Shown here: positions 1,340-21,556 of the stretch, piece after piece | Layout of the letters: every line of letters begins with the position of its first letter | How positions within the stretch are numbered: the first letter of the stretch is position 1 | Virus genome (UHGV): UHGV-0298867 | Length of the DNA: 55,178 nucleotides | From: a virus | Direction: 5' to 3' (one strand) | Made by a program: the position numbers and the translations under genes | The notes under the pieces: generated by a model | What the model was told of the DNA's origin: nothing | Database searches by the model: none | What the model saw: the letters and a program-made list of their open reading frames with translations, nothing else

Positions 1340-1358
1340 ATTGCCCGGAGAAAAGCAC

Positions 1359-4256
1359 GTGACAGAACAAACCTCCCGCCTGGCCATTATTATTGACAGC
1401 TCTGGGGCAGAAAAGCAGGCTGACAATCTCGCAACTGCACTTGTAAAAATGACGCAGGCAGGTGAACGTGCTGCCACCAGTGCAGGGAAAGTGACAAAGG
1501 CCACTGATGAAGAAAAACAGTCCCTTTCTGAACTTTTAGATCGTATCGACCCGGTAAACGCCGCCCTGAACAAACTGGATAAACAACAGCAGGATCTTGC
1601 GAAATTCAAATCCAAGGGGATGGTAGATACCGATACATTCGATCTTTATTCAAAGAAAATCGAGGAAACACGAAACAGGCTAACAGGATTTCGCGACGAC
1701 CTTGGTAAAACCGGCCAATCCGCCGCCCAGACCGCCTATGCCATGCGCATGATCCCGGCTCAGATGACAGATATTGTTGTCGGCTTATCCACCGGTCAGT
1801 CTCCGTTTATGGTGCTGATGCAGCAGGGCGGGCAGTTAAAAGATATGTTTGGTGGTATTGGTCCGGCAATTAAGGGTGTGGGCACCTATGTTATGGGGTT
1901 GGTTAACCCTTTAACTCTTGCAGCTGCGGCGGTCGGATTTCTTGGTCTGGCCTATTACAAAGGCACTCAGGAGCAGGACGAATTTTATAAGTCTCTCGTT
2001 CTCACTGGTAATCTGGTAGGCAAAACTTCCGGTCAACTGGCAGATATGGCGGCCCGTGTATCGGTCGCAGCTAACTCCACAACCGGTGCAGCAGCTTCAA
2101 CGCTGAATCAGTTGGTGTTATCCGGTAAAGTAGCTGGCGACTCATTGGAGCGCGTGACAACCGCCATTGTTAAGACCAGCGAGGCGACGGGCATTGCTAC
2201 CGATAAGCTGGTTGGTGATTTCAACGACATTACTGCTGACCCGGTTGCGGCCATTACCAAACTTAACGACCAGTACCACTTTCTGACACTGGCAACCTAC
2301 AACCAGATTAAAGCGCTACAGGATGAAGGTAATCAGCAGGATGCTGCACGGGTGGCTACTGATGCTTACGCCAATGCCATGCAGCAGCGTGCGAATGATA
2401 TTCATCAGAATCTTGGTCTTCTTGAAAGTGCATGGGACTCGCTGGGTAAAACGGCCAAAGGCGCCTGGGATGCGATGCTCAATATTGGGCGTGAACAAAC
2501 ACTAACGGATAAACTTGCCACCTTAAACGAAAATATTGCTGAAGCCCAAAAAGGGCAAAAAGATGGTGGGTTCTGGAACAGTTTTAGCGCGAGGTTTACC
2601 AACCTCCCGGAGATGATAAAACAGAGAGATTTGCTCGAATCAGTTGCCAATCTTCAGGGGGATGTAACCAAAGGACAGGCGAAGGCTAAGGAAGCCGAAC
2701 AGCAAAGAATTAAAACGCAGCAGGAAGCAGATCGCGTTAACCAGCAATATCTGAGCAATGCGGATAAGCGCAATAAAGCTATTAAGCAGCAAAGCGAATT
2801 CCTGAAGGCTGGTGCAATTACTGCAGAGCAATATGCAAAAAATGTTTCTCGCATTAACGAGATGTACAAAGATCCGAAACCACCCAAGACGCCAAAGGGT
2901 AAAGCATATACCGAGGACGCAGCAACCAGGTTGCTTGATCAGATAAACCAGCAGACCGCTGCCATGCAGTCCCAGCTTGACGCCAGTGACAAGCTTAACA
3001 GCGCAACTCAGGCGCGGGTTAAGTTCGAACAGCAAATTACTGACCTCAAGTCTAAAACGCAGCTCACCGCTGACCAGAAATCGATCCTTTCCCGTTCAGA
3101 TGAAATCCTCCAGGCGTATAAGCAGCAGGAGGCACTGCAAAACTCCGTAAAAACCCTGGACGATTACCGGAAGATGCAGGAACAGGTAAAGACGAAGGAT
3201 GAGCGGACCAACGATCTGCTTAAAACCCGCCTTGAACTACTGGAGAAGGCCAAAGCAACCGGGCAACTCAAACCCGGTGAATATGAAAAAACGCGGGCAG
3301 ATATTTATCAAAATACCGATATGCAACTGCCCTCGACGGTTCGTAATGTTGTAGGAAACCTGACACCCACAGGAGGGCGACTCTCTGGAACTTTTGAGGG
3401 GATGCAGGGGCAAATCAACGAATATGACCAGGCTCAGCAAGAGCTCCAGCGCTGGCTGGCAGCTCAGGAGGAAGCTTATGCGAAGGCCGGCGAAATAACT
3501 GCCGAGGGTGAGGCCAGAATGACCTCGATTCGTCAGCGTGCAGCGGATGTAAATCAGGTCATAGAGGCTCAGAAAAACACCATCATATCTGCGGCCACGC
3601 AGTCCTTGTTTGACAGTACCGCCGACATCATGCGAACGGGGTTTGGTGAGCAATCGGCAATCTACAAGGTTGCTTTTGCTGCGAGCAAGGCATTCGCTAT
3701 CGCGGACTCAATGGTGAAAATCCAGCAGGCTATAGCAAGCGGTGCAGTTAGCTCGCCTTATCCGGCCAACATCATCGCTATGGCCTCAATCGCTGCGCAG
3801 ACCGCCAGTATCGTCTCAAATATCCAGGCTGTTTCAGGAGTTGGATTCGCCTCCGGCGGTTACACCGGCCCCGGTGGTAAGTATCAGCCAGCGGGTATTG
3901 TTCACAAAGGAGAGTACGTCTTCGACCAGGCATCAACGAACCGGATCGGCGTGTCTCAGCTTGAGGCACTTCGAAATGGCAAACCGCTTGATGCAACTCT
4001 GGGGCGTACAGGGTTTGGTACTGGTGTTCAGAACGTTAACAGCGATAACCGTAGGCAAACAACTGTACACGCGCCGATTAATCAGGAGTTTCATCTCCAG
4101 GGTATTACTCCGGAGCAGTTGAGCGCTACACTCAATCAGAATAATCGACTGCTTTCCAGGCAGTTAAAAGGTGAACTCACAAAGGAGGTTACCATGCCAC
4201 AAGGGGCTTTTGGCAACGCTCTAAAAGGAAACTATACACGACACGGTCCTAGGTAA
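1359..4256 (+). CDS. Tail tape measure protein. Probable GTG start at 1359 with RBS GGAG at 1347-1350 (the ORF is open from 1341).
   Basis: 966-971 aa, alpha-helical and Gln/Ala-rich with coiled-coil character. It lies after G/GT and before the tail-tip genes. The N-terminus MTEQTSRLAIIIDSSGAEKQADNL is typical of TMPs. Confidence 0.9.
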   Translation: MTEQTSRLAIIIDSSGAEKQADNLATALVKMTQAGERAATSAGKVTKATDEEKQSLSELLDRIDPVNAALNKLDKQQQDLAKFKSKGMVDTDTFDLYSKKIEETRNRLTGFRDDLGKTGQSAAQTAYAMRMIPAQMTDIVVGLSTGQSPFMVLMQQGGQLKDMFGGIGPAIKGVGTYVMGLVNPLTLAAAAVGFLGLAYYKGTQEQDEFYKSLVLTGNLVGKTSGQLADMAARVSVAANSTTGAAASTLNQLVLSGKVAGDSLERVTTAIVKTSEATGIATDKLVGDFNDITADPVAAITKLNDQYHFLTLATYNQIKALQDEGNQQDAARVATDAYANAMQQRANDIHQNLGLLESAWDSLGKTAKGAWDAMLNIGREQTLTDKLATLNENIAEAQKGQKDGGFWNSFSARFTNLPEMIKQRDLLESVANLQGDVTKGQAKAKEAEQQRIKTQQEADRVNQQYLSNADKRNKAIKQQSEFLKAGAITAEQYAKNVSRINEMYKDPKPPKTPKGKAYTEDAATRLLDQINQQTAAMQSQLDASDKLNSATQARVKFEQQITDLKSKTQLTADQKSILSRSDEILQAYKQQEALQNSVKTLDDYRKMQEQVKTKDERTNDLLKTRLELLEKAKATGQLKPGEYEKTRADIYQNTDMQLPSTVRNVVGNLTPTGGRLSGTFEGMQGQINEYDQAQQELQRWLAAQEEAYAKAGEITAEGEARMTSIRQRAADVNQVIEAQKNTIISAATQSLFDSTADIMRTGFGEQSAIYKVAFAASKAFAIADSMVKIQQAIASGAVSSPYPANIIAMASIAAQTASIVSNIQAVSGVGFASGGYTGPGGKYQPAGIVHKGEYVFDQASTNRIGVSQLEALRNGKPLDATLGRTGFGTGVQNVNSDNRRQTTVHAPINQEFHLQGITPEQLSATLNQNNRLLSRQLKGELTKEVTMPQGAFGNALKGNYTRHGPR

Positions 4257-4312
4257 GCTAAACTGCATTAGCTGAGACTTGATTAGGTAGGTAAGTCTAA
4301 CAATCTGAGTAG

Positions 4313-4675
4313 GTGCAAGAAAACACAAGGATCTTATTAATGGAAGCGTTGTTAACATTTACATTTAAAGACTTTATAGCTTTTATGATTCCTCTTTTTA
4401 TTGGCGGGCTTATCTTCAATAGGAGACGTAAACGTAAGGAGGTCCGAGTGAAGTTTTCATTTCTTTGGCTTGTTTTGATAGTTGGTGGAACTCTTGAAAT
4501 ATGTGATGAGATTTACACAACTTATTCCTATAGGCATAATCACTTATATAATAATGATACGCTTACAACCGTGTTTAACTATGATTTTGCAAAAATTGTT
4601 TTTTGTGGGGTTTTGATCTTTGTTTCTATTGCGCTTCTTCTTCAGGAGTTGCTTTTAAACAAGCAGTCACATTGA
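4313..4675 (+). CDS. Small hydrophobic membrane protein in an AT-rich moron. An alternative start is the ATG at 4340 (MEALLTF...).
   Basis: The region 4260-4985 is strongly AT-rich relative to its flanks. The ORF has multiple hydrophobic segments. Confidence 0.4.
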   Translation: MQENTRILLMEALLTFTFKDFIAFMIPLFIGGLIFNRRRKRKEVRVKFSFLWLVLIVGGTLEICDEIYTTYSYRHNHLYNNDTLTTVFNYDFAKIVFCGVLIFVSIALLLQELLLNKQSH

Positions 4676-4989
4676 CGTAATTTTCCTGTCGGCACGTCGC
4701 CCTTTTTTATTTTGATGTGGGGCTGTGCCGAAACAATGTAAGCTCACATTAAAGTCAATAAAATTAATATATTGATAATGCTGTTTTTTTTGATTTCTTT
4801 TAGCTCTTAAGATGAGCTGATAAATATATCGCCTTGTGTGTTTGTGTCGATTCAATAAGATTTTTATCTTCGTTAATCTGAACCAAAAAATCAGAGATTT
4901 CTTCGATTCCATCGTGCTTTATTCTGAAATGAATATCCTCCTGAGGTTAATGGTGAAATTTTATTCGAGATACTTTACCGGGAGACTGC

Positions 4990-5454
4990 ATGACTGATAT
5001 CAACTACCCACATGACAGCCTCCCTATGCCATTACAGGAAGGATACGGATTCCAGCCTGTAAGCCCGTTAAAACGTACCCAGTTAATCACCGGCCGCGCG
5101 CGGCAAAGGCGAGCTTTTACGTCCACGCCGACGCAGGCCAGCATCACCTGGTTTATGGAAACCGATGCGCAGGGCCTGGCGTTTGAGTCCTGGTTCCGTG
5201 ATGCGTTATCTGACGGGGCAGCGTGGTTCATGATGAAGCTGCAGACGCCGGCGGGCATTAAGTTTTACAAATGCCGCTTCACAGATATTTATCAGGGACC
5301 GGTGCTGGTGGCCCCGATTTACTGGAAGTACACGGCAACGCTTGAATTATGGGAGCGCCCCCTTGCTCCTGCCCCATGGGGTAATTACCCGGAATGGATC
5401 GTCGGCAGCTCACTGCTGGATATTGCGCTGAATAAGGAGTGGCCCAAGGCTTGA
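4990..5454 (+). CDS. Minor tail protein, lambda gpM-like
   Basis: Immediately after the TMP. EGYGFQ...AFESWF...KFYKCRF resembles gpM GDGYSQ...LESFLE...IKVTCAKW. RBS GGGAGA. Confidence 0.65.
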   Translation: MTDINYPHDSLPMPLQEGYGFQPVSPLKRTQLITGRARQRRAFTSTPTQASITWFMETDAQGLAFESWFRDALSDGAAWFMMKLQTPAGIKFYKCRFTDIYQGPVLVAPIYWKYTATLELWERPLAPAPWGNYPEWIVGSSLLDIALNKEWPKA

Positions 5455-9601: not shown

Positions 9602-9652
9602 TTCGCTCAAACCCTCGTTTGGGCGAAGCCTCTTTTTGGAGCAAAAAACATG
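9602..9652. repeat. Left inverted repeat of the invertible segment. It contains the 26-bp hix/gix-like crossover site TTCGCTCAAACC-CT-CGTTTGGGCGAA (9602-9627), plus the 5' UTR and ATG of the downstream fibre gene.
   Basis: 50/51 nt identical to the reverse complement of 14640-14690. The 26-bp site has 12-bp half-sites around a 2-bp core, as hix/gix sites do. Confidence 0.8.
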
Positions 9653-10393
9653 GCCCTGACTCCTCCACTCGGCTCGACGACACCAGAGGTCTTGTTACGT
9701 AATGCTGGCGATCTTGATCGCGCCATGAACAGTGAAGATGATACCTGGCAAAACCGAGGTGGTGATGAGCTCCCCACCATGAAGGGATATCAGAAACAGG
9801 TGGATGCCATCACTGATGATGTTTTTCAGGCCAGGGATACGGCTGTTGAAGCAGCTGCAACGTTACCCACAAAACAACAATTCCTTGAGCTACAGGTGGA
9901 AGTCGACGGTATCACGGCCGATCCTGCAAACGCGATTGCAAACATTACCATTCCGGCGAAAGACTTTGACCTTGCTGTAGGGAGTGCCAGTTTTGGCATG
10001 ATAGCCAGTCGCCTCGCGGGCTGGCAGTTCACTCATGGGGTAAACGCATCCATCACCAAAATGATAGACCTGCCGTCTCACTGGTCAAAAATGCGTATAT
10101 CCCTGATCTGGACAAACCTCGTTGCTAACAACAATTTCAATGTGAGCCTTTCAGGTGAGCGGCATAGCTGGTCTGCCGGTGAGTCTTTCAATCAGGAGCC
10201 TGCAGGTTATGCTGCGGTCGTTCCGGTTAATGGCACACCGTTTATTGCAGTGGAAACACAATTAGCGCTTGATCTCACCGTTGACCCTACACGGCATACT
10301 ACCCTTCGCATCGGACGAAATGGCGCGTCTTCCAGCGATACCCTGCCCACTGCCATCGCATTACTCGCCGTCAGACTGACAAAGGTGGCTTAA
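9650..10393 (+). CDS. Tail fibre/spike N-terminal anchor-domain protein (247 aa), module A of the switchable receptor-binding cassette
   Basis: The N-terminus MALTPPLGSTTPEVL is shared with the convergent 868-aa fibre (MAELNPPLGTTTPEIF). It lies immediately downstream of the J-like gene and inside the IR-bounded segment. Confidence 0.6.
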   Translation: MALTPPLGSTTPEVLLRNAGDLDRAMNSEDDTWQNRGGDELPTMKGYQKQVDAITDDVFQARDTAVEAAATLPTKQQFLELQVEVDGITADPANAIANITIPAKDFDLAVGSASFGMIASRLAGWQFTHGVNASITKMIDLPSHWSKMRISLIWTNLVANNNFNVSLSGERHSWSAGESFNQEPAGYAAVVPVNGTPFIAVETQLALDLTVDPTRHTTLRIGRNGASSSDTLPTAIALLAVRLTKVA

Positions 10394-11629
10394 ATGAGTG
10401 TTTACCAGTCATGGCGGACGGCCTGGCGAACACCAGGCGTGTTAAGAAATTATCCTCCTAATCCGCTTTATGTGGATACGGTCAGAGGAAAAGCGTCGGG
10501 AAAAGGGTCAGTCGATGATCCAGTGAACAGCCTCGGTCTGGCGCAGGGGTTATGCCTCGGTCTTTCCGATTATGAAATAAAGATTATTGCCCCGGAAAGT
10601 TCTCCACTACGACAGGAGGTTGTATTTAACACCACCGAGAATGTGACCTTATCAGGCGTTGATGGTGAACCGTGGTACACCTTTGGATCTGAAGAACATA
10701 CATCCGGGTGGACTCAGAACGGTCAGATTTTTCAGAAAACACTGGGGTATACCTCTGTGCTTCAGGTGGTCGTTACATCAATGACGGAGACGGTCGGTGA
10801 CAGAGATGATTTTCTTTTTAAACTACTACAAAACACCTCCACGCCGACCACGCCAGCAGCTGGTGAGTATGGATATGCAGGAGGCATTATTTATGTCCGG
10901 TTACCGGATGATTCAGACCCTGCTCTGCACTCGATTGAAATATCCCGGCGTAATTTTGGGGTAGCGACAACCGGGTTTGGACTCCTTACGGTGAATGACT
11001 GTATCGCGCGCTATTGCATGATTAATGGCATTTCCTGCGGGTTATCCACGCAACCGGCAGGCACCGGCTTCCTGACCGTCAATGACTCCGTTATTGAGTA
11101 CTGTGCGAATGCCGGTGTTGGTGGTACGGGGCGAAATGAGTTGATAATCTGTAATAACGTGCGTGCCTGGCGGATTTCAAATGATGGCTTCGGGCAGCAT
11201 GCGCCTGTAGGCGGTGCCGGAAAAATGATCCTGAATGGCTGTAATGGTAGTTATAACGGCGATCAGGCCGGTCAGTCTGCCCAGGGGGCTTCAAACCATG
11301 AGTTTACGAAAATGGTAATCAACGGAGGGACATTCAATTTTAATGTCTCAGGCGGAATGGTGGCTATTGAAAATGCGCAGTGTGATATTCACGGCGACAC
11401 AAAATACGGGCCTGTTGTGATGGACGGGAATATGAGGCTGGGGAATACGGCAGGAACTATCGCCAGCCAGGCTGGATGCGCCTGGCTGAACTATGCCACT
11501 GGGATAGTGACGGGAGATGTAACCGTTAAAAACGGTCAAGGTGTCGGCGTTCGCCGTGGGCCAGATGCCATCGTGGAAGGTATCGCAACGATCCACTCAA
11601 TCAACAACGCACTGCCGGATATTTTGTGA
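10394..11629 (+). CDS. Right-handed beta-helix (pectate-lyase-like) receptor-binding or depolymerase-like tailspike protein (411 aa)
   Basis: Repeated beta-helix rungs (NDCIARYCMINGISCG, NDSVIEYCANAGVGG, ICNNVRAWRISNDGFG). It has its own RBS AAGGTGG. It is in the same frame as the upstream ORF, separated from it by a single TAA. Confidence 0.65.
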   Translation: MSVYQSWRTAWRTPGVLRNYPPNPLYVDTVRGKASGKGSVDDPVNSLGLAQGLCLGLSDYEIKIIAPESSPLRQEVVFNTTENVTLSGVDGEPWYTFGSEEHTSGWTQNGQIFQKTLGYTSVLQVVVTSMTETVGDRDDFLFKLLQNTSTPTTPAAGEYGYAGGIIYVRLPDDSDPALHSIEISRRNFGVATTGFGLLTVNDCIARYCMINGISCGLSTQPAGTGFLTVNDSVIEYCANAGVGGTGRNELIICNNVRAWRISNDGFGQHAPVGGAGKMILNGCNGSYNGDQAGQSAQGASNHEFTKMVINGGTFNFNVSGGMVAIENAQCDIHGDTKYGPVVMDGNMRLGNTAGTIASQAGCAWLNYATGIVTGDVTVKNGQGVGVRRGPDAIVEGIATIHSINNALPDIL

Positions 11630-11636
11630 GGTAAAA

Positions 11637-11852
11637 ATGACAGTATGCAGATTGTGTCAGTGTGAGCCAATGGTGATGACAAAGCCGGAAACCGATGGAA
11701 TCACCTATTTTTATGTGCATTATGTGGAATGTTCCGGATGTGGCATAGGAACAAAACGGTTTTCTGAGCAAATGATGGAGGCTGAGGCCGCTATCAGCCA
11801 GGCTTCAGAACAGTGGGAGCTGATGAATATAACGGTTCCTGACATCAGATAG
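11637..11852 (+). CDS. Lar-family restriction alleviation-like zinc-ribbon protein (71 aa)
   Basis: CRLCQC...YFYVHYVECSGCG...SEQW fits the Lar/RalR pattern CxxCxC...C..C...A..W. The ATG at 11637 lies 8 nt after the spike-gene stop. Confidence 0.5.
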   Translation: MTVCRLCQCEPMVMTKPETDGITYFYVHYVECSGCGIGTKRFSEQMMEAEAAISQASEQWELMNITVPDIR

Positions 11853-12007
11853 ACGATATGCGGCTCCTGTCACGTACGTTATTTAACGAGCCTCCCGGCG
11901 ACCTTGTTGCACTCTAAAGACGAGAAACATCTGGAAACACCAGGAATTTTCTTAGAAGATACTCGATGCGCAAAGACGCACACAGCAATAATGTCATTCA
12001 GTATTTT

Positions 12008-12037
12008 CCCCCGGCGTGCCTCCGGGGGCGTTTTTTT
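12008..12037 (+). terminator. Intrinsic terminator CCCCCGG-CGTGCCT-CCGGGGG-CG-TTTTTTT, at the convergence point of modules A and B
   Basis: A 7-bp GC stem with a 7-T run. The stop codon of the minus-strand fibre gene (12036-12038) overlaps the T-run. Confidence 0.7.
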
Positions 12038-14642
12038 AAAGCATATTCACAACGCTTGCCATTCTCCGGGCTATCAACTCTCCGCCAGCGGCATTCGGAT
12101 GCAGGTTATCCCCGGTATAGAGACTCAGGTTATAGAGATTTATTCCGCTTTCAGCAAACAAATCGCAGACTGGCACACTGAATAACGCGCACACTTCTCT
12201 AATGGCCTGCACGTACTGTGGCAACGTAAAGCCCGCTGAGTTCGCCGCCGGATAAACCGGCTGGCTTTCAAATGTACCTCGTTTCATCGGCGTACTGAAC
12301 ATCACTCGTACCGTTGGTTTCAGGGTATAGATTTTGTTCAATACGAAGAACACGTCGTAATAAAACGATTTAACCGTCGTATCATCATAATCCGCCCTGG
12401 CGTCTGCAATTGTCCCGAGCCGGCGATTTCCCCCGTAATCGTTCGTCCCTCCCAGAATCGAAATGAAATCCATCGCATCAATAGTGGTGGCGTTGAGTGA
12501 ATCAGCCATCGTTCTGACTCCCTGACCAGGTACGCCATAATTGGCAATCTGGCGCATACCAGTCCGGGAAAGTAGTGGCGCAATGTAATTCCCCGTGTTT
12601 GTTATGCTGTCACCAAGGAATCCGATCCCCTTTCCCTGCCAGGGCAATTCCTGCCCCTGCCCACCGAAAGGAACATATCCAGCAGGAACAGCCTGACCAG
12701 GTGAAACCATCAGGCTGTTCAGGCGTGTCAGGTTGTAGACCTGGAACCGAACAAAATATGCATTATCAGGAACAGCATAAGGCGTATTTGCGACCAGATT
12801 CTGGAAGCCGCTGAGGAAGGTGCCGTCAATTTTATAGAATGCGCCGCCACCTGAGCCATACGTAGAAACGAACCAGTCTCCAGGAGTGACCATCATCATT
12901 GGCGTTGCGAAGTACCCCGGTGAAGAGGTTAGCCCGCCGGTCTGATAAGAAACGCCCCTGTCTGTCTGGGCGAGTTCGCTGTTATAGAGATTCACCGACA
13001 CTTTTTGCAGGGACAGTGCGACCGAGCGCGCTACAGTCAGCGATTTTGTATCAACGTAAGTTGACGTCGGCGAACCAAACGACAGGTAGCTCGCAGGGAG
13101 TGCTGAGCCTTCAACCATCATCAGTGTGTTTTTTGCTGAAAGACCGTATACCTGAAACCGGACATAAACCGCACCAGATGGCGTGGTAAAAACGGTTCCG
13201 GCAGCAATAGTGGTGTTCAAAATTTTGGTTTTGTTGATATCAAAATAGACAACCACACCTGATGCACTGCTTGCGATGTATTGCGTGTTAGGTTTTACCG
13301 GGATAAATGGCGTGACAAAATATCCGGATGCCACATAGGGCGCTCCAGTAGTCGCCAGCGCATAATTATCCAGCGCAACATCCTTGTTGAACATATTGCG
13401 TATGGCGGCCAGAGTACCGTCCGCAATTCCCCAGCTGATTGACTGGGTGATTGCCGTTGCCTCTGCAGTTGTCAGCGCGCCAAACCCCAAATAAGATGAC
13501 GGCAGAGAGGTTCCGCGAACAACCATCAGACTTTCTTTACCCGATAGCGGTGTGCTCTGGAAACGCAGGTAACAGGAACCAGTCGGAACGGTAAAGGTCG
13601 TTGCAGCAGCGACAGTGATATTTGACGTTTTGCTCAGGTCAGGATCATAGAAGCATAATACCTGCGTACCAGATGAGAGGATGTAACTCTCTCCGGGAAG
13701 GACCGGGATATAGTCAGTAACAAAATAGCTGGCATTTGCCGTCAGACTGCCGTTAGTCGAGAGCGCATATCCGTCGTTAGCCCGGTTTTTATCAAACAGG
13801 TTTCGTACCAGAGCGTTCGCTCGTGAGCTAATATCAATTGCCTGCTCCAGGGCAGTTCGTTTGGCGGAGAAAGGGTCGACCAGACCGGCCCCAATGTGAC
13901 CAGCAGGAAGAGAAGTACCTTTAATTAGCATCTGTCCGGATTTGCCAGTGCTCAGCGTCTGCGAGAACCGGATATAACGAGTCCTGGCTGGCGTGGTAAA
14001 AACGGTTCCGGCAGTGGCGCCTGCAACATAGGAAATGAAATTGCCCTGTAAATCATAAAATGCCAGTTGTGACACATTCACAGCGAAAACATACTGCGTA
14101 CCGTCGAGTGCGGGTATCATGTCACTCACAAAGTACGCCGCATTTGCGACCAGCGAGCCGGTAGAGCCAACCGCAAAACCATCCGTAGTCCGCTCTTTGT
14201 CGAAATAGTTAATGACCAGTGAGCCGCGCCCTACATCAGAATAAATCTGCCCAGTCACCGCACTGACAGAATCCAGATATGACTTAGACGGCATCTGCCG
14301 CCCGGTAGGCTGCAACGTCCCACCGTTGTTGATTACCTCAAGAGCCAGCGCGCTATCGTCCGGGCTGCGGTAATACGTCGTAGAGCCCACCGGAATATTC
14401 GCGATATCCGCCTGCGCCGCAGCCAGCGTCGCATACTGGCGGCTGAGAGGAATCAGATTCTGTCGTGTCTCCTCTGTAAGGGCTTCATTCTTCGCCATCA
14501 TTCCGCGCCAGGTATCGAGCGGTTCACCGCCGCGGTCGTCAACCGTTCCTGCCGGACCGTTAACCAGTTCGTCAGCGCGCTTAACGTTGTCCATGAATAT
14601 TTCCGGCGTCGTCGTGCCCAGTGGCGGGTTAAGTTCGGCCAT
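12036..14642 (-). CDS. Tail fibre (868 aa), module B. It has an N-terminal anchor, four tandem ~110-aa repeat (carbohydrate-binding-like) domains, and a C-terminal SGNH/GDSL esterase domain.
   Basis: GDSIT (block I), GTND (block III) and DNLHPN (block V) are SGNH hydrolase motifs. The four repeats have the form F(D/N)K..DGYA..TGSL.AN..YFV..IP...F..P.G..Y.RFQ. Confidence 0.8.
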   Translation of the reverse strand: MAELNPPLGTTTPEIFMDNVKRADELVNGPAGTVDDRGGEPLDTWRGMMAKNEALTEETRQNLIPLSRQYATLAAAQADIANIPVGSTTYYRSPDDSALALEVINNGGTLQPTGRQMPSKSYLDSVSAVTGQIYSDVGRGSLVINYFDKERTTDGFAVGSTGSLVANAAYFVSDMIPALDGTQYVFAVNVSQLAFYDLQGNFISYVAGATAGTVFTTPARTRYIRFSQTLSTGKSGQMLIKGTSLPAGHIGAGLVDPFSAKRTALEQAIDISSRANALVRNLFDKNRANDGYALSTNGSLTANASYFVTDYIPVLPGESYILSSGTQVLCFYDPDLSKTSNITVAAATTFTVPTGSCYLRFQSTPLSGKESLMVVRGTSLPSSYLGFGALTTAEATAITQSISWGIADGTLAAIRNMFNKDVALDNYALATTGAPYVASGYFVTPFIPVKPNTQYIASSASGVVVYFDINKTKILNTTIAAGTVFTTPSGAVYVRFQVYGLSAKNTLMMVEGSALPASYLSFGSPTSTYVDTKSLTVARSVALSLQKVSVNLYNSELAQTDRGVSYQTGGLTSSPGYFATPMMMVTPGDWFVSTYGSGGGAFYKIDGTFLSGFQNLVANTPYAVPDNAYFVRFQVYNLTRLNSLMVSPGQAVPAGYVPFGGQGQELPWQGKGIGFLGDSITNTGNYIAPLLSRTGMRQIANYGVPGQGVRTMADSLNATTIDAMDFISILGGTNDYGGNRRLGTIADARADYDDTTVKSFYYDVFFVLNKIYTLKPTVRVMFSTPMKRGTFESQPVYPAANSAGFTLPQYVQAIREVCALFSVPVCDLFAESGINLYNLSLYTGDNLHPNAAGGELIARRMASVVNML

Positions 14643-14690
14643 GTTTTTTGCTTCAAAAAGAGGCTTCGCCCAAACGAGGGTTTGAGCGAA
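14640..14690. repeat. Right inverted repeat of the invertible segment. It contains the 26-bp hix/gix-like site (14665-14690) and the start codon (minus strand) of the module B fibre.
   Basis: Its reverse complement equals 9602-9652 with one mismatch. The IR ends exactly at the outer edge of the 26-bp site. Confidence 0.8.
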
Positions 14691-14733
14691 TGGCCGCGGC
14701 TTTTTACAATCAGCTATTTCAAGGAGTTAGATA

Positions 14734-15282
14734 GTGCTGATTGGCTATGCTCGGGTATCAACCGGGGATCAAAACCTCGATTTACAGAAAAATGCGCTGA
14801 TTCGCGCAGAATGTGAGCTGATTTACGAGGATACGGCGAGCGGAAAGAATGCCCGGCGGGCTGGGCTAAAGCGCGCGCTGCGGCAGCTAAAGCCGGGTGA
14901 TGTGCTGGTGGTCTGGAAACTGGATAGGTTGGGGCGCAGCGTGCGGGATTTAATCACGTTGGTGTCAGAGCTGCAGGCGCGTGGGGTGAACTTTCGAAGC
15001 CTGACTGACTCGATCGACACATCAACGGCCGCGGGGCGTTTCTTCTTCCACGTCATGAGCGCGCTGGCAGAGATGGAACGAGAGCTGATTGTGGAGAGGA
15101 CCCGCGCAGGACTGGTGGCGGCGAGAGAGCAGGGGCGTATCGGCGGACGTCGCCGGGTAATGACTGAAGAAGTGGTGGAGCGGTGCCGCAGAATGCTGGA
15201 GAACGGCGCTACCCGGCAGCAGGTAGCCGATGTGATAGGTGTAGACGTGAAAACAATCTACAAGTACCTCCCGGCGACTTGA
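14734..15282 (+). CDS. Serine DNA invertase of the Hin/Gin/Cin/Pin family (GTG start, RBS AAGGAG)
   Basis: MLIGYARVSTGDQNLDLQ...GRFFFHVMSALAEMERELI...GRIGG matches Gin (MLIGYVRVSTNDQNTDLQ...GRFFFHVMGALAEMERELI) almost throughout. The gene abuts IR-R. Confidence 0.95.
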   Translation: MLIGYARVSTGDQNLDLQKNALIRAECELIYEDTASGKNARRAGLKRALRQLKPGDVLVVWKLDRLGRSVRDLITLVSELQARGVNFRSLTDSIDTSTAAGRFFFHVMSALAEMERELIVERTRAGLVAAREQGRIGGRRRVMTEEVVERCRRMLENGATRQQVADVIGVDVKTIYKYLPAT

Positions 15283-15359: not shown

Positions 15360-15782
15360 TTGTTCGTGAACGGTAAGAAAACAATAAGTTTTGAGCAATT
15401 TTTAACTATTAACAGCAATCTTGTTTCCATCTCAGATACATGGGCTGACTTGTGGGCGTTAATTTTTCACACGGGTTTAAGCGCTGGAAGGCTGCTGAGT
15501 ATTCGATATGATGATATTGATGGTGACTTGATACTGATACGAAAACAGGGTCACCTGAAGGAGCTACGTGTTAAATCAACCCCTCCAGTGGAGGCGATGA
15601 TTGCTCGTAGAAGAGAACGCTATCCAGAAGATGTTTTTTTATTTCAGAGCCATTCTAACCGTGTGAAGTACCAACGCCGGCCGGTCACTATAATTGCTTT
15701 CAACGCCGCTTTACGTCGCGCCGCTAGATCATTACCAGACGTTAACGTAAGCAGTAGTAGCGCGAGAAACATACCGGACTAA
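15360..15782 (+). pseudogene. Fragment of a small FimB/FimE-like tyrosine recombinase. It lacks both the N-terminal part and the C-terminal H-R-H-Y region.
   Basis: HTGLSAGRLLSIRYDDIDGDLILIRKQGHLKELRV has the first catalytic Arg and the Lys box of tyrosine recombinases. The ORF ends before the HxLRH and Tyr motifs. Confidence 0.45.
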
Positions 15783-15796
15783 CCGCCTGTCCAGTC

Positions 15797-15855
15797 GCGT
15801 GTGGCCGATGTGACAGGCGTGGGGGGGGAAGACTATTTACAAATATTTGCCAGTA
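15797..15855 (+). pseudogene. Degenerate relic copy of the invertase 3' end
   Basis: GGCCGATGTGACAGGCGTGG...ACTATTTACAAATATTT aligns with the invertase C-terminus GTAGCCGATGTGATAGGTGTAGACGTGAAAACAATCTACAAGTACCT (15222-15270). Confidence 0.55.
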
Positions 15856-15864
15856 CAATACGGC

Positions 15865-15970
15865 GATAAAAAATCCCCTTGAGCAGGCACACTCAAGGGG
15901 AAAATACTACATAACATCATTGCTGTGTGCGTCTTTGCGCTCGTCTATCTTCCAAGAAGATGCCTAAAGC
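15865..15970 (-). repeat. Inverted, diverged copy of the fibre-end/terminator region 11890-12037. It includes a conserved terminator hairpin (15875-15900) with its T-run on the minus strand.
   Basis: The reverse complement of 11935-12037 aligns with 15868-15945 (GGGGAAAATACT..ATTGCTGTGTGCGTCTTTGCGC). The stem differs by compensatory changes. Confidence 0.55.
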
Positions 15971-16010
15971 TTCCAGATATTTCTGGTCTGAGCAGTTAAA
16001 ACATTGGTTT

Positions 16011-16070
16011 GGTAGCCGATGTGATAGGAGTGGGAGTAAAGACGATTTATAAATATTTTCCAGCCGGTTA
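16011..16070 (+). pseudogene. Second degenerate relic of the invertase 3' end
   Basis: GTAGCCGATGTGATAGGAGTGGGAGTAAAGACGATTTATAAATATTTTCC aligns with the invertase C-terminal coding sequence. Confidence 0.55.
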
Positions 16071-16294
16071 AGTTTGCTCACCTGCGAACCGTATGCAAGA
16101 GATCGCAGGTGAGCAATTTGCTATTAAGGCATTGCCATAGCTGAAAAATTTTAACCTCGCATTGTTCGCAAAACCATCAAACAGCTAAGGCCTGAAAACA
16201 CTTTCAGACTAACCTTACTCGTTACATCAATGTGTTACGGCAATGACAAAAATTTATAGCCAGAACCTATATTGATCTGTCGTCCTGTTAAAAC

Positions 16295-16314
16295 TACTGT
16301 ATATAAAAACAGTA
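16295..16314. promoter_or_regulatory. LexA (SOS) box TACTGTATATAAAAACAGTA upstream of umuD
   Basis: A perfect CTGT-N8-ACAG palindrome matching the consensus TACTGTATATATATACAGTA, 20 nt upstream of the umuD ATG. Confidence 0.85.
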
Positions 16315-16334
16315 TTAATCTGAGCGAGTCAATT

Positions 16335-16754
16335 ATGCAGTTTTACACGCCCGTTGAGTTACGTGAGATCATGCTGATCCCGTTGTACAGTGACCTTGTG
16401 CAATGTGGTTTTCCAAGCCCTGCACAGGATTACGTTGAGCAACGCATCGATCTGAACGAGTTGCTCGTTAACCACCCCAGTGCGACGTATTTTGTCAAAG
16501 CCGCCGGCGACAGCATGAAGGATGCCGGCATAGGAGAAGGTGATCTTCTTGTTGTGGATAGCTCAAGGACAGCAGTTCATGGCGATATCGTTATCGCTGC
16601 AGTGGATGGGGAATTCACCGTTAAGAAGCTGCAGCTGCATCCGCGGGTTCAGCTTAACCCAATGAACCCTGCATATTCGCCGATAGTCGTCGGTAGTGAG
16701 GACACTCTCGACGTGTTCGGGGTGGTTACGTACATCATCAAATCAGCTGGCTGA
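16335..16754 (+). CDS. umuD: UmuD (DNA polymerase V accessory subunit, S24 LexA-like peptidase)
   Basis: [61 protein letters not shown] is near-identical to E. coli UmuD, including the CG cleavage site and the Ser and Lys catalytic residues. Confidence 0.95.
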
Positions 16755-16755
16755 G

Positions 16756-18021
16756 ATGTTTGCACTTTGCGATGTGAACTCATTTTACGCATCCTGCGAA
16801 ACTGTTTTCCGTCCTGACCTGAAGGGGCGTCCGGTGGTCGTTCTGTCAAACAACGACGGCTGTGTGATCGCCCGCTCGCAAGAGGCGAAGCCCTTCGTCA
16901 AAATGGGCGAGCCTTATTTCAGGCAAAAGGACATGTTTCGCCGGCACGGTATTATCGCGTTTAGCAGCAACTATGAGCTTTATGCCGATATGTCCAACCG
17001 AGTGATGACAACGCTGGAGGAACTCTCTCCACGCTGCGAAATTTACAGTATTGATGAGGCATTTTGCGACCTGGCAGGAGTTCGGAATTGTCGCGACCTT
17101 ACCGACTTTGGCAGGGAAATTCGCGAGACGGTTCTGCGCAGGACGCACCTCACGGTCGGTGTCGGCATAGCCCAGACTAAAACCCTGGCAAAGCTGGCCA
17201 ATCACGCGGCGAAACAGTGGCAGCGGCAGACCGGAGGAGTGGTGGATCTGTCTAATCTGGAAAGACAGAGAAAGTTGATGGCTTTGCTTCCGGTGGATGA
17301 GGTCTGGGGAGTCGGGCGCCGCATCAGTAAAAAACTGGAGGCAATGGGCATTAAAACAGTGCTTCAACTGGCTGATACCGATATCCGTTTTATCCGGAAG
17401 CATTTTAATGTGGTTCTGGAGCGAACCGTGCTGGAGCTGCGAGGCGAACCATGCCTCGGGCTGGAGGAGTTCGCGCCGGTAAAGCAGGAGATTGTCTGTA
17501 GTCGCAGCTTTGGGCAGCGGATTTCCACCTACGAAGAGATGCGCCAGGCAATATGCAGCTACGCATCGCGCGCAGCGGAGAAACTCCGTGGTGAGCACCA
17601 GTATTGCAGATTTATCTCCGTATTTGTTAAAACCAGCCCCTTTGCGTTGAATGAACCGTACTACGGGAACAGCGCATCAGTAAAGCTGCTAACTCCAACC
17701 CAGGACAGTCGGGACATAATTACCGCGGCGACGAAATGCCTCGATGTAATCTGGCGAGACGGACATTGCTACCAAAAAGCAGGAGTGATGCTCGGGGATT
17801 TCTTCAGCCAGAGCGTAGCGCAGCTTAACCTCTTCGATGATAACGCACCACGGAAGAACAGTGAAAAGCTTATGGAAGTTCTCGACCACCTCAACGCAAA
17901 GGATGGCAGGGGGACGCTATATTTTGCTGGGCAGGGGATCCAGACTGCCTGGCAGATGAAGCGAGAAATGCTATCACCTCGATACACCACGAGATATAGT
18001 GACTTGATTAAAATCAGATAA
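16756..18021 (+). CDS. umuC: UmuC (DNA polymerase V catalytic subunit, Y-family)
   Basis: MFALCDVNSFYASCETVFRPDLKGRPVVVLSNNDGCVIARS... matches E. coli UmuC along its whole length. It starts 1 nt after the umuD stop. Confidence 0.95.
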   Translation: MFALCDVNSFYASCETVFRPDLKGRPVVVLSNNDGCVIARSQEAKPFVKMGEPYFRQKDMFRRHGIIAFSSNYELYADMSNRVMTTLEELSPRCEIYSIDEAFCDLAGVRNCRDLTDFGREIRETVLRRTHLTVGVGIAQTKTLAKLANHAAKQWQRQTGGVVDLSNLERQRKLMALLPVDEVWGVGRRISKKLEAMGIKTVLQLADTDIRFIRKHFNVVLERTVLELRGEPCLGLEEFAPVKQEIVCSRSFGQRISTYEEMRQAICSYASRAAEKLRGEHQYCRFISVFVKTSPFALNEPYYGNSASVKLLTPTQDSRDIITAATKCLDVIWRDGHCYQKAGVMLGDFFSQSVAQLNLFDDNAPRKNSEKLMEVLDHLNAKDGRGTLYFAGQGIQTAWQMKREMLSPRYTTRYSDLIKIR

Positions 18022-18269
18022 TTCAGTCCATGAATGTTGCATTGTACTATACAAGTTCTACTGCTATCTCAGTTCGCTTAGGAGCGAAAAGCGGAAGTTC
18101 ATAAAGGCTGTTAGCATGGGTAAGATCTTAACAAACGCATAGGTGTATTAGTCCCATCGGGATGGACAAGGAAATAATCAGCCAGTTAAGAGATTTCTAA
18201 AGTGAGTGTTCCAGCTAAGCGGGGGTGCTTGCGATGATTGCTAGATGAATATAAAAAGGTTATGCAGCT

Positions 18270-19364
18270 ATGAAAAATAAAAACTACAGCGTTGAGTGTG
18301 ATGATGAATCATTTGTATCTAAAGACGTTCAAGCTCTGATCAACAACGGTCTGGAATTTCTGGATAAGGCACGCGAAGAGTTGGAAGCCTCCAAGCCGAA
18401 ATTTTCGATTGTCAGTTTCTGGACAGCGGTTGAGATTATGTTGAAAGTGCCGCTGGTACACGAACACTGGAGCTTAGTGTGTTCCGGAAGGAAAATTGAA
18501 AAAGCAAAATACCTTGCAGGTGATTTCCAGTCGATCACGTATGATGAAACCTGTCAGCGATTAGGTGATGTGCTTCAAAATCCCTTACCGAAAGAAACCA
18601 TCGCTGTATTCAAAAAAGTTAAGGACCACCGCAACCGTGTAGTTCATTTTTATCATTCTGATTTCACCGATACTCAAGTGAAGACAATTCTTGATGAACA
18701 GGCTGATGCTTGGTTTGCGCTAAACCGTTTTATGCGTGATCAGTGGTTCTACCTTTTTGGAGAACCGCTAAACTCAAAGCTGGCATCAGATGAGGACCGT
18801 ATGCTCCGGAGTTCGTTATTTTATGCTGATGCAAAATTTCGTTTTCTCCAGCCTATTCTTGATAATCTCAGAAATAAGGGAAGCACGATTTCAACCTGTC
18901 GTGCCTGCAGCAAAGAAGCTCTCGTTGACATGCCTATCAATGAGGAAAGTGGGAATACTCTTCACGAGGCAGATTGCTTAGTGTGCGGTTGCAGGGCTGA
19001 TCCATATGTCGAAGTGACATGCCCTGATTGCGGGGCAAAGCAGGATATGGGTGCTACCGGTGGAACGCAATTCAATTGCAGTAACTGTAATTATTCTTCA
19101 TCACGGTACGACTTGCTGGATGAGTGGATTGGCAAACCGGAAGAATTTAGTTATTCGGGTCTTCCAGCAAGTTGTTCCGATTGCGAAGGCTATGAGACGG
19201 TATGTGAGTACGGAGGTGGATATCTGTGTACGAACTGCCTTGTTTTTCATCAGTCAATAGGTACTTGTGGTTACTGCGGAGGAAGCTCTACATCAGTTAG
19301 TGAAATGAGCGGGCTGGTTGGTTGCGGATTTTGTGACGGAAATACTAAGTATCTTGATGACTGA
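18270..19364 (+). CDS. Orphan protein: an N-terminal all-alpha domain with a possible HEPN Rx4H motif (DHRNRVVHF), then a C-terminal array of about eight CxxC pairs (four zinc ribbons)
   Basis: Lower GC than its flanks. A long ORF with a good RBS context. Cys pairs: CRAC..CLVCGC, CPDCG..CSNCNYSS, CSDCEG..CTNC, CGYCGG..CGFCDG. Confidence 0.6.
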   Translation: MKNKNYSVECDDESFVSKDVQALINNGLEFLDKAREELEASKPKFSIVSFWTAVEIMLKVPLVHEHWSLVCSGRKIEKAKYLAGDFQSITYDETCQRLGDVLQNPLPKETIAVFKKVKDHRNRVVHFYHSDFTDTQVKTILDEQADAWFALNRFMRDQWFYLFGEPLNSKLASDEDRMLRSSLFYADAKFRFLQPILDNLRNKGSTISTCRACSKEALVDMPINEESGNTLHEADCLVCGCRADPYVEVTCPDCGAKQDMGATGGTQFNCSNCNYSSSRYDLLDEWIGKPEEFSYSGLPASCSDCEGYETVCEYGGGYLCTNCLVFHQSIGTCGYCGGSSTSVSEMSGLVGCGFCDGNTKYLDD

Positions 19365-19974: not shown

Positions 19975-20368
19975 GGTTACCTCCAGTCTTCAGACTGAAA
20001 GTATAGAAGGTGTGGAGGAAACGTAGGAAGGGAACTCCGACAGCCATCTAACTGATGACTGTCGGAGATGACGTCAAAAACAATGTGTACAAAATTGTGT
20101 ATTAAAATCAGGAAAATTGCACAATTTGAAAATTTAACTCATTGTTTTTAATTGACAAAAACATTTATTTTGTAGGTGCTATCGTAGGGCATATGAATCC
20201 GTTTTAAGTTTGTTAGTCATGCTTTAAGTCTTTTCAAAAATCCCGCTAATACCAACACATTGCCAGCATTCAGTGCTTTAATTTTGTGTGTTCTGCATTG
20301 ATTTGAAGGTTATCAATTTAACCAAAATGTGTACACTGATGTGTATATCATCTTCCGGAGTGTACACA

Positions 20369-21556
20369 TTGCTTACCGACACAAAATTAAGAAAAGCTCT
20401 TGGCAAAAAGAGAGACCAGATCGAGGTCATATCGGACGCTCATGGTCTGAATGTCCGGTTGTCTACTTCCGGCAGTATAACATTCTTTTACCGCTACAGA
20501 TGGAACGGGAAAGCCGCTCAGCTAACGATTGGCGATTATCCCACCACCTCCTTATCTCAAGCTCGCGAACGTAGACAGCAGTTCAGGGCGTGGTTGACAG
20601 AAGGACTCGATCCGAGACGGCAAATAGTTCTGGAGAAACAGAAAAAAGTCGAAGCGCTCACCGTTAAAGAGGCTTTCGATTACTGGGAAAAGTATTACTG
20701 CATCCCTGAAGGTCTTGTGAAAATCAAGGTTAACCGACGGGACTTCAATAACCATATAGCGCCTGTGCTGGGGAACATGATTGTTGATCAGACCACTAAA
20801 GCGCACTGGCTTAACCTTTTTGATGGCATGGGGCGAAGAGTTGTCACTGGTCAGATGCTTGGGCTGATGCAGCGTACGTTCCGTTTTTGCTCCAATCGAG
20901 GGGTCATTAATGTGAACCCAATTGAGAGCCTTAGGCGCTCTGACGTAGGTCTCACAGCATCCGTTAAAGATCGCAGATTGAGTGATGAGGAAATCAAAAC
21001 AGTTTGGAATATCCTTCCTGAATTGAAGTACAGACAACAGCTGATAATGAAGTTTCTCATCATGACTGGCTGCAGGAGTACAGAGATCAGGACAGCAAGA
21101 TGGGAGTGGTTCGATTTCCATGAGCAAACTTGGACCATTCCGGCAAGTGATTATAAAACCGGTAAATCGGTCAGAAGGGCACTTCCCGAGGCAGTAGTAA
21201 GAATGATGTTAGCAGAGAAGGAAACGTCAGTTTCAAAACACGTTGTGACACTGTCACGCTACAGGGGGCCAGAAGATGACAGACCGCCACTACAACCAAA
21301 CGTCGCTCTGTTTTCTGCTCAGATTATAGCTAAAACAGGCATGAAACCCTGGTCTCTCCATGACCTCAGGCGAACAGTGGCGACACGCCTTTCTGAATTA
21401 GGTGCGCCGCCACATGTTGTGGAAAAACTGCTTGGCCATCATATGGCAGGTGTCATGGCACGTTATAACCTGCATGATTATCTGGATGATCAGCGTCACT
21501 GGCTTGCTGTTTGGCAGGATCACCTTGAGAAGCTGGTTGGTCAGCCTCTGGTTTAA
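20369..21556 (+). CDS. int: Tyrosine integrase, P4-type. Probable TTG start at 20369 (MLTDTKLRKAL...). The ORF is open from 20288, with alternative ATGs at 20327 and 20339.
   Basis: An LTDTKLRKA N-terminus is typical of P4-family integrases. The C-terminus has HDLRRT...GH...ARY (R-H-R-Y catalytic residues). Confidence 0.9.
   Translation: MLTDTKLRKALGKKRDQIEVISDAHGLNVRLSTSGSITFFYRYRWNGKAAQLTIGDYPTTSLSQARERRQQFRAWLTEGLDPRRQIVLEKQKKVEALTVKEAFDYWEKYYCIPEGLVKIKVNRRDFNNHIAPVLGNMIVDQTTKAHWLNLFDGMGRRVVTGQMLGLMQRTFRFCSNRGVINVNPIESLRRSDVGLTASVKDRRLSDEEIKTVWNILPELKYRQQLIMKFLIMTGCRSTEIRTARWEWFDFHEQTWTIPASDYKTGKSVRRALPEAVVRMMLAEKETSVSKHVVTLSRYRGPEDDRPPLQPNVALFSAQIIAKTGMKPWSLHDLRRTVATRLSELGAPPHVVEKLLGHHMAGVMARYNLHDYLDDQRHWLAVWQDHLEKLVGQPLV

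Follow-up and report, generated by a model that had tools for sequence, protein, structure and literature searches.

The virus genome UHGV-0298867 was analysed as one stretch of 55,178 nucleotides (nt), referred to here as the window, and the element of interest is a cassette of two converging gene modules that lies between inverted repeats next to an invertase gene. From its Pfam and PHROG domains and gene content, the window appears to be a circularly permuted, complete temperate phage genome, and the nearest records found by sequence search are Klebsiella prophages; judged in this way, the phage is a lambda-like temperate siphovirus of Klebsiella. The gene order of the window (tail genes, J, cassette, invertase) places the cassette at the very end of the late tail operon, and the J-like gene is taken to be the last constant gene of that operon and the assumed source of the transcript that enters the cassette. 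The plus-strand cargo, module A, consists of three genes for proteins of 247, 411 and 71 amino acids (aa), whereas module B is a single minus-strand gene for an 868-aa fibre. The coordinates are collected in Table 1.

Table 1. The cassette and other features of the phage genome, in positions of the window.
Feature	Position	Strand	Description or basis
Tape measure	1341-4256		Part of the tail genes
J-like central tail fibre/tip attachment gene, 1022 aa	6504..9572	+	PF24801 FNIII-A_GpJ, PF13550; phrog_469 tail protein, E 1e-296
IR-L, left arm of the inverted repeat	9602..9655		26-bp site, then T-run, GGAG ribosome-binding site, ATGGCC
Left recombination site, TTCGCTCAAACC-CT-CGTTTGGGCGAA	9602..9627	+	Outer half-site 9602-9613, core CT 9614-9615, inner half-site 9616-9627
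Module A, gene 1, 247 aa	9650..10393	+	N-terminal helices, C-terminal beta-sandwich (predicted)
Module A, gene 2, 411 aa	10394..11629	+	Right-handed parallel beta-helix (AlphaFold and Foldseek)
Module A, gene 3, 71 aa	11637..11852	+	Cys-x2-Cys pairs; called in public annotations
Intrinsic-terminator-like hairpin	12008..12037	+	7 G-C pairs, then T7; between the converging modules
Module B, single gene, 868 aa	12036..14642	-	Docking domain, four tandem domains, SGNH/GDSL esterase (predicted)
IR-R, right arm of the inverted repeat	14637..14690		Site at 14665-14690, core AG 14677-14678, ribosome-binding-site variant GAAG
Promoter-like element for the invertase, TTGAGC-17 nt-TACAAT	14682..14710	+	Consensus scan; putative function
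Gin/Cin-family serine DNA invertase, 182 aa, GTG start	14734..15282	+	PF00239 Resolvase and PF02796 HTH_7; phrog_125 DNA invertase
Region matching the annotated Cin recombinational enhancer (gene nt 19-90)	14752..14823	+	P1 record annotation and consensus scan
Tyrosine integrase	20288-21556
RecT, exonuclease VIII, replication protein O			In the window
Large terminase	45308-46615		Head genes then run to the window end

A repeat search returned two inverted arms of 54 nt (9602-9655 against 14637-14690) that match at 53 of 54 positions and lie 4981 nt apart. From its outer end, each arm reads TTCGCTCAAACC-CT-CGTTTGGGCGAA, then GCCTCTTTTTG(G/A)AGCAAAAAAC and last ATGGCC, and the lone mismatch falls in the ribosome-binding site (GGAG in the left arm, GAAG in the right). 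ATGGCC forms the first two codons of the 247-aa gene on the plus strand and of the 868-aa gene on the minus strand; the repeat holds no further codons of either, and 22 nt separate the end of the site from the ATG at both genes. With up to three mismatches allowed, the 26-bp site occurs in exactly two inverted copies in the 55-kb window and in none of 100 shuffles; a third, cryptic site of a shufflon-like system was therefore rejected. The site is built of two imperfectly symmetric 12-bp half-sites around a 2-bp core (12-2-12), as are gix (TTATCCAAAACC-TC-GGTTTACAGGAA in the Mu record) and cix (cixR is TTATCCAATACC-TT-GGTTTAAGAGAA in the P1 record). It matches gix at 15 of 26 positions (common TT..C..AAACC / GTTT....GAA), and the outer TT (positions 1-2), the C at position 5 and the inner arms AAACC (positions 8-12)/GTTT are common to all three sites, whereas half-site positions 3-7 differ from those of gix and cix. 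The cores given in Table 1 follow from alignment with cix, for which the P1 record annotates the crossover at the central dinucleotide; they delimit a segment of 5,063 bp, and the dinucleotide is identical in both sites and non-palindromic, as inversion requires. Each recombination site can also fold into a hairpin with an 11-bp stem followed by a T-run (9602-9640 and 14652-14690; minimum free energy -19.5 kcal/mol, z -3.6), which the scan scores as a terminator for transcripts entering the segment from either side.

The recombinase gene starts 43 nt outside the right arm, and by domains and homology its product is a member of the Gin/Cin/Pin/Hin invertase family. Over its full length, the protein shares 64% of its residues with Mu Gin and 68% with P1 Cin; it aligns end to end with crystallised Gin (4m6f/3uj3, E 4e-68) and carries the catalytic-serine motif YARVST. 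In NCBIfam, it matched no named invertase family and gave only distant serine-recombinase hits, which stayed below cut-off. This enzyme would be the catalyst of inversion. The -35 hexamer of its promoter-like element falls inside the outer half-site, an arrangement that would permit autoregulation of the invertase. Of the two Fis sites expected in the region that matches the Cin enhancer, one is recognisable as consensus-like, at 14804-14818 (GCGCAGAATGTGAGC, gene nt 71-85), where 14 of 15 positions are as in cin; a dependence of inversion on Fis is putative. A preliminary description of this DNA had proposed a 51-bp inverted repeat with hix/gix-like 26-bp sites and a Gin-like serine invertase just outside the right arm; the repeat is real, although 54 nt long, and both the 12-2-12 sites and the identity and position of the enzyme are borne out by the alignments, the Pfam domains and the Gin structure.

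Sequence searches of the PDB with the 247-aa protein, the 411-aa protein and the N-terminus of the fibre gave nothing significant, and the folds of the module A proteins therefore had to be predicted. About 70 N-terminal residues of the 247-aa protein are 37% identical to the N-terminus of the 868-aa fibre (BLASTP, E 3e-10), and among its homologues the first ~65 residues vary with phage type whereas the last ~175 are conserved. The AlphaFold model (pLDDT 80.7) shows N-terminal helices and a beta-sandwich resembling the carbohydrate-binding modules CBM6, CBM16 and CBM36 (E about 1e-5 to 3e-6), and the protein is predicted to be docking and lectin-like, with a part that is carbohydrate-binding-module-like. 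For the 411-aa protein, which has no Pfam match, AlphaFold gave a parallel beta-helix of the pectin-lyase-like fold (pLDDT 93.6, pTM 0.90), and Foldseek related this model to glycoside hydrolases, the Klebsiella K1 capsule lyase and phage tailspikes (probability 1.0). Distant homologues of the protein carry PF13229 Beta_helix, and it is a candidate polysaccharide-degrading spike. Homologues of the 247-aa and 411-aa proteins come from contigs of equal size, one of them a contig of 6,780 bp from Martelella alba, a hint that the two co-occur in other phages; the sequences are consistent with a pairing of docking protein and enzymatic spike. The third gene of module A is the one at 11637-11852, as called in public annotations; an open reading frame (ORF) at 11966-12181, which overlaps the terminator-like hairpin, was set aside. 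This hairpin is oriented to stop plus-strand transcripts leaving module A.

The protein encoded by module B resembles, in residues 1-130, the N-terminal portion of numerous families of phage tail fibres (phrog_9750 and related). Residues ~140-660 (window 12450-14250, minus strand) comprise four tandem domains of ~135 aa, three of them visible as 405-nt direct DNA repeats; this domain matches phrog_11541 (function not annotated) and may be a carbohydrate-binding repeat. The C-terminus is predicted to be an SGNH acetyl-esterase: residues 675-853 match PF13472 GDSL_2 (E 6e-15) and GDSL proteins of the PDB (E 5e-19), and SGNH blocks I (GDS), II (G), III (GxND) and V (DxxH) are all present in the translation, as GFLGDSIT, GVPGQG, GGTNDY and DNLHPN. 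Most of the cargo was thus recognised correctly at the outset, namely two convergent fibre modules (the ORFs are as described), a beta-helix spike and a fibre with an SGNH esterase. The proposed 'anchor' role of the 247-aa protein agrees with its putative N-terminal docking helices and leaves out its beta-sandwich. The label 'Lar-like' for the 71-aa protein is weak, as it scores 17.6 bits (E 0.0046) against PF14354 (Lar), below the cut-off of 28.6 bits.

The strongest evidence for inversion comes from public genomes. Exact-sequence look-ups of the 868-aa and 247-aa proteins led to about twenty Klebsiella loci, numbered here with the prefix L. Orientation A, that of the window (J, 247, 411, 71, reversed 868, invertase), is found in L004-L007, L010, L013 and L016-L018, and orientation B (J, 868, reversed 71/411/247, invertase) in L008, L009, L011, L012 and L020-L023. 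The loci were compared with the window after cutting at the site cores. In this comparison the left flanks of L008 and L009 (orientation B) are 100% identical to the window over 5,013 bp, the right flank of L012 (also B) is 100% identical, and the 5,063-bp segments of all three are 99.96-99.98% identical to that of the window, but reversed. The position of the exchange can be narrowed with the ribosome-binding-site variant GAAG, which lies beside the 868-aa gene in orientation A (window, L007, L010, L016, L018) as well as in B (L011, L012), where it comes after the J flank and the 26-bp site. Because GAAG stays with the 868-aa module in both orientations, the exchange point must lie in 9602-9638, the outer 37 nt that contain the site. 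Both ribosome-binding-site alleles occur in both orientations, and repeated flips must therefore have taken place. The compared sequences indicate that the switch is real and that the segment flips in nature; either module can be found behind the J-like gene in near-identical prophages, as had been predicted.

Three further ideas were considered and set aside. An assembly artefact was rejected because both states are present in complete chromosomes (CP025541.3, LR890569.1, OZ259499.1 and CP031808.1) and because the 54-bp repeat is shorter than typical reads. An excess of 2-10 kb contigs, considered as a sign of mixed orientation in one culture, was rejected after inspection of two 5,075-bp NCBI contigs (L150/L151, with a different cassette of the same family). 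These contigs end on both sides in the conserved N-terminal coding region of the converging fibre genes, and they therefore reflect a longer repeat, extending several hundred bp into the genes as in P1, and are uninformative on mixed populations; Logan contigs would break at any repeat that exceeds their k-mer (k = 31). Module exchange between phages exactly at the site core was dropped as well, as the inner half-site variant of L020 follows the flank type (as in L003) and not the module.

The same prophages show further variation. The 247-aa gene is cut to 165 aa in the otherwise near-identical L006 (14250-14747), J is split into 827 and 200 aa in L007 (15071-18132), and the fibre is shortened to 852 aa in L016 (12387-14945); part of the prophage population is therefore decaying. 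Single chromosomes can carry two prophages with identical sites and invertases, as do those with L008/L009 (JAMJQY010000001.1, 1.93 and 2.93 Mb) and L018/L019 (LR890569.1, 2.94 and 3.15 Mb). In LR890569.1, one prophage has the 247/411/71 module beside J; the other has it beside the invertase, combined with a different SGNH fibre of 818 aa. Where two such prophages share a chromosome, action of the invertases in trans is conceivable, and large stretches of the chromosome could be inverted by recombination from one prophage to the other.

Taken together, the data make it very probable that this complete, temperate, lambda-like Klebsiella siphovirus uses DNA inversion to switch between two sets of receptor-binding proteins. 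The invertase would bind both inverted 26-bp sites, cut at the central CT and invert the 5,063-bp segment, after which the module facing J would be transcribed as the end of the late tail operon while the other would be antisense and silent. The output of orientation A would be the docking/lectin-like protein, the beta-helix enzyme and the 71-aa protein, and that of orientation B the fibre with the SGNH acetyl-esterase. As the sites lie in an untranslated leader, the segment brings its own ribosome-binding sites and start codons and no fusion protein arises; since the crossover is 22 nt 5' of the ATG, the exchange involves complete genes together with the N-terminal tail-docking part of each, and both products would therefore be able to mount on the same tail. 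The consensus scan shows no conspicuous promoter in the 29 nt that separate the J stop codon from the site, so that the J-facing module is expected to be read as the last part of the late operon, presumably by read-through from J. No promoter stands out within the segment either, and the proposed logic needs none. Antiterminated late transcripts of a lambdoid phage would be expected to pass the site hairpin. As in Mu, inversion would take place mainly in the prophage state, and an induced lysate would contain mixed particles with two surface-polysaccharide specificities.

Several points weigh against this interpretation. The evidence for both orientations is a comparison between isolates and assemblies, and not within one culture. 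The second expected Fis site, 48 bp upstream of the first (14756-14770, gene nt 23-37), reads TATCAACCGGGGATC, which has a G+C-rich centre and a low score against the Fis consensus. The site hairpin with its T-run, just 5' of the active gene, could stop part of the incoming late transcription, and the 411-aa beta-helix protein is without a recognisable docking domain of its own. Neither module is tied to a receptor or a capsule type, and an effect on host range is a predicted consequence.

The two orientations could also have been produced by RecA-dependent homologous recombination between the 54-bp repeats, with the adjoining invertase irrelevant or inactive. The exchange interval of 37 nt alone cannot separate site-specific from homologous exchange, and in some members of the family the repeat runs over the conserved N-terminal coding region in which the 5,075-bp contigs break. 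We nevertheless regard this as very improbable, for 54 bp is about the lower limit for RecA recombination, an intact invertase with 64-68% identity to Gin and Cin lies 43 nt away, the site has the architecture of gix and cix, and the pairing of site and invertase recurs with many unrelated cargoes. Phage KPP5665-2 is instructive in this respect: it has the same site with different cargo, and its arms agree over all 26 bp but lose their identity immediately beyond, a sign that the site itself is under constraint.

Whether flipping continues is a separate matter. Many relatives keep one site without an invertase or with a 40-aa remnant (L001), J-adjacent sites outnumber invertase-adjacent ones among the matches listed (84 against 36), and some prophage copies have the decayed 247-aa (L006) or J (L007) genes described above, all of which would suit a relic whose orientations are old fixed states of diverged lineages in which inversion has ceased. 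Such a relic is, in our estimate, highly unlikely: over 5 kb of flank, prophages of opposite orientation are 100% identical, and their segments show only 1-2 differences; both orientations carry both ribosome-binding-site alleles, implying repeated flips, and the window retains an intact invertase ORF, both sites and both modules. The least probable explanation in our view is that inversion serves the lysogen, with the product of one orientation altering the cell surface or blocking other phages rather than changing phage host range. The SGNH esterase could in principle deacetylate the host's own capsule, and Pin-type (PinQ/PinR) inversions in cryptic prophages of E. coli are reported to inhibit T2 adsorption (PMC12529663; bioRxiv 10.1101/2025.03.28.646004). 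Against a role confined to the lysogen, the phage looks complete (integrase, RecET, replication protein O, terminase, tail genes), both modules start with a tail-docking domain common to other tail fibres, and a promoter inside the segment is neither needed for switching behind J nor conspicuous.

The switch of the window has many relatives. The exact 26-bp site is present in at least 120 IMG/VR stretches; among species-representative genomes it occurs in contigs of Klebsiella and Raoultella and in a single contig of 1,095 bp labelled Streptomyces. Among the matches listed, the outer side of 134 sites is the 3' end of a J gene in 84 cases and the 5' end of an invertase gene in 36, the other 14 being at contig edges or without assignment. 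On the inner side lies a gene whose first ~120 aa resemble the N-terminus of the fibre, a conserved docking domain. The matches listed also include at least 101 distinct complete proteins 3' of the site, which form at least 52 clusters by their C-terminal parts, and an invertase follows in 10 of the 12 J-side sites that have at least 7.5 kb of downstream sequence. At least 11 further protein types (at least 95% identical within a type) lie beside J in one listed contig and beside the invertase in another, and the pair L032 and L096 serves as a worked second example of a type found on both sides. Single-site derivatives exist as well, such as ST846-OXA48phi9.2, in which only a 40-aa 'Hin recombinase' remnant is left. 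The T-run after the site is kept in the common leader variants of the family, and the hairpin with this T-run may keep the modules insulated from transcription that is not antiterminated. It is quite possible, although we would hesitate to call it probable, that the site and leader, together with ATGGCC, serve as a shared 'adapter' in a large family of two-state switches, apparently undescribed so far, of temperate Klebsiella and Raoultella phages, each switch alternating two complete enzymatic receptor-binding operons out of at least about 50 types. A full-text search of the open-access literature returned no description of this Klebsiella cassette.

For Klebsiella phages, host range is hard to predict and to engineer chiefly because of capsule and O-antigen specificity. 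If the switch operates as proposed, a prophage with two receptor-binding gene sets, one expressed at a time, would release mixed lysates, and its silent specificity would be unrelated to the capsule of its present host. Were the adapter family real, each such prophage would express one surface-polysaccharide specificity and keep a second one silent, which would be a hidden cause of the frequent failure of prophage receptor-binding genes to predict the capsule type of the host. The switch type is widespread in prophages of a clinically important genus. A recent study left nearly a third of K-loci without a statistically significant predictor and, of its 14 active prophage depolymerases, 5 had activity on a K-type that differed from the one predicted for the host (PMC13123978). 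The words invert, inversion, recombinase and orientation are absent from that paper, alternating expression of two modules was not considered, and the switch could account for part of its K-type mismatches. Scans for invertible promoters or gene-altering inversions probably miss this layout, because its repeats lie between genes and no promoter is known from the segment. For the engineering of receptor-binding proteins, the conserved 54-bp adapter and the N-terminal docking domain would be natural exchange points.

Directly 3' of the invertase lies a 140-aa ORF (15360-15782) that matches only part of tyrosine-integrase families (phrog_1 positions 268-388; phrog_19751). Many related prophages keep it beside the invertase, and it may be a piece of an integrase gene or else a small gene without assigned role. 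The sequence that follows (15783-16120), 3' of the intact invertase, resembles a set of cassette remnants. Two of them correspond to the 3' end of an invertase gene, one at 15801-15850 with a frameshift in a G-run and one at 16012-16071 that reads VADVIGVGVKTIYKYFPAG up to a stop, and between them is an inverted 51-nt copy (15890-15940, 86%) of 11968-12018, the sequence preceding the inter-module terminator, with a terminator-like hairpin of its own on the minus strand (15874-15901). Such an arrangement would result if a deletion had joined the interior of an old module to that of an old invertase gene. Further on, but still before the attachment/integrase region, come an umuD/umuC-like error-prone polymerase operon (16272-18021) and a 364-aa gene (18270-19364) for which domain and family searches gave no match. 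In related prophages, the slot past umuC is occupied by a DUF3800 protein, a reverse transcriptase, or proteins of 192 and 124 aa. In L009 and L011, a reverse transcriptase gene of 495 aa (RVT_1; ~17028-18515 in locus coordinates) separates the 140-aa gene from umuD, an insertion that may be a group II intron. The related prophage L003 (MK416008.1, Klebsiella phage ST405-OXA48phi1.3) has, on the opposite strand inside its tail cluster and just upstream of the J-like gene, a gene (4135-5013) with the annotation TIR-domain protein.

The recombination principle of the cassette is classical and known from phages Mu and P1, whereas its whole-gene layout differs. Besides the full-length identity of the invertase to Gin (64%) and Cin (68%), the likeness to the Mu G and P1 C segments comprises two inverted 26-bp 12-2-12 sites with AAACC / GGTTT-type arms, an invertase gene just outside one repeat, two converging alternative fibre modules in the segment and, as far as can be inferred here, the outcome of alternative receptor specificity. 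Two defining features of Mu G and P1 C fail in the window. According to the record annotations, their crossover lies inside gene S, so that the constant Sc is fused to either Sv or Sv', and the two modules come with chaperones of their own, U and U'; in the window the crossover is intergenic and whole genes are swapped, and no U/Tfa-type chaperone family was matched by the segment genes in Pfam, PHROG or NCBIfam. The window phage further differs in being a lambda-like siphovirus (Mu and P1 are myoviruses), in its enzymatic cargo (esterase and beta-helix), and in the recognition helix of its invertase, which departs from those of Gin and Cin as half-site positions 3-7 do. The initial classification as a Gin/Pin-type cassette thus stands for enzyme and sites, but not for the C-terminal swapping of one fibre gene that gin, cin and pin cassettes perform, as complete genes are exchanged here.

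Among lambdoid phages, the cryptic E. coli prophages e14, Rac and Qin have a Gin-family invertase, Pin, next to the side tail fibre genes that close the tail operon, an arrangement like that of the window. The P segment of e14 is said, in work by Mehta et al. from 2004, to swap C-terminal parts of stf together with tfa chaperones, whereas the window swaps whole genes between intergenic sites. For the 247-aa protein, a weak match to gp13 of the siphophage Sf11 (PDB 9OCC; E 0.018, residues 5-80 against gp13 8-83), not significant alone, is a lead: residues 4-59 of gp13 are helices that dock the spike on the distal tail protein, and the AlphaFold model of the 247-aa protein also has N-terminal helices. 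A close parallel to module B is offered by two Klebsiella prophage fibres with SGNH domains that are active acetyl-esterases, a domain among the commonest in Klebsiella prophage receptor-binding proteins (PLoS Biol 2026, PMC13123978). Like those fibres and phage G7C gp63.1, module B encodes a tail fibre ending in an SGNH domain with all catalytic blocks.

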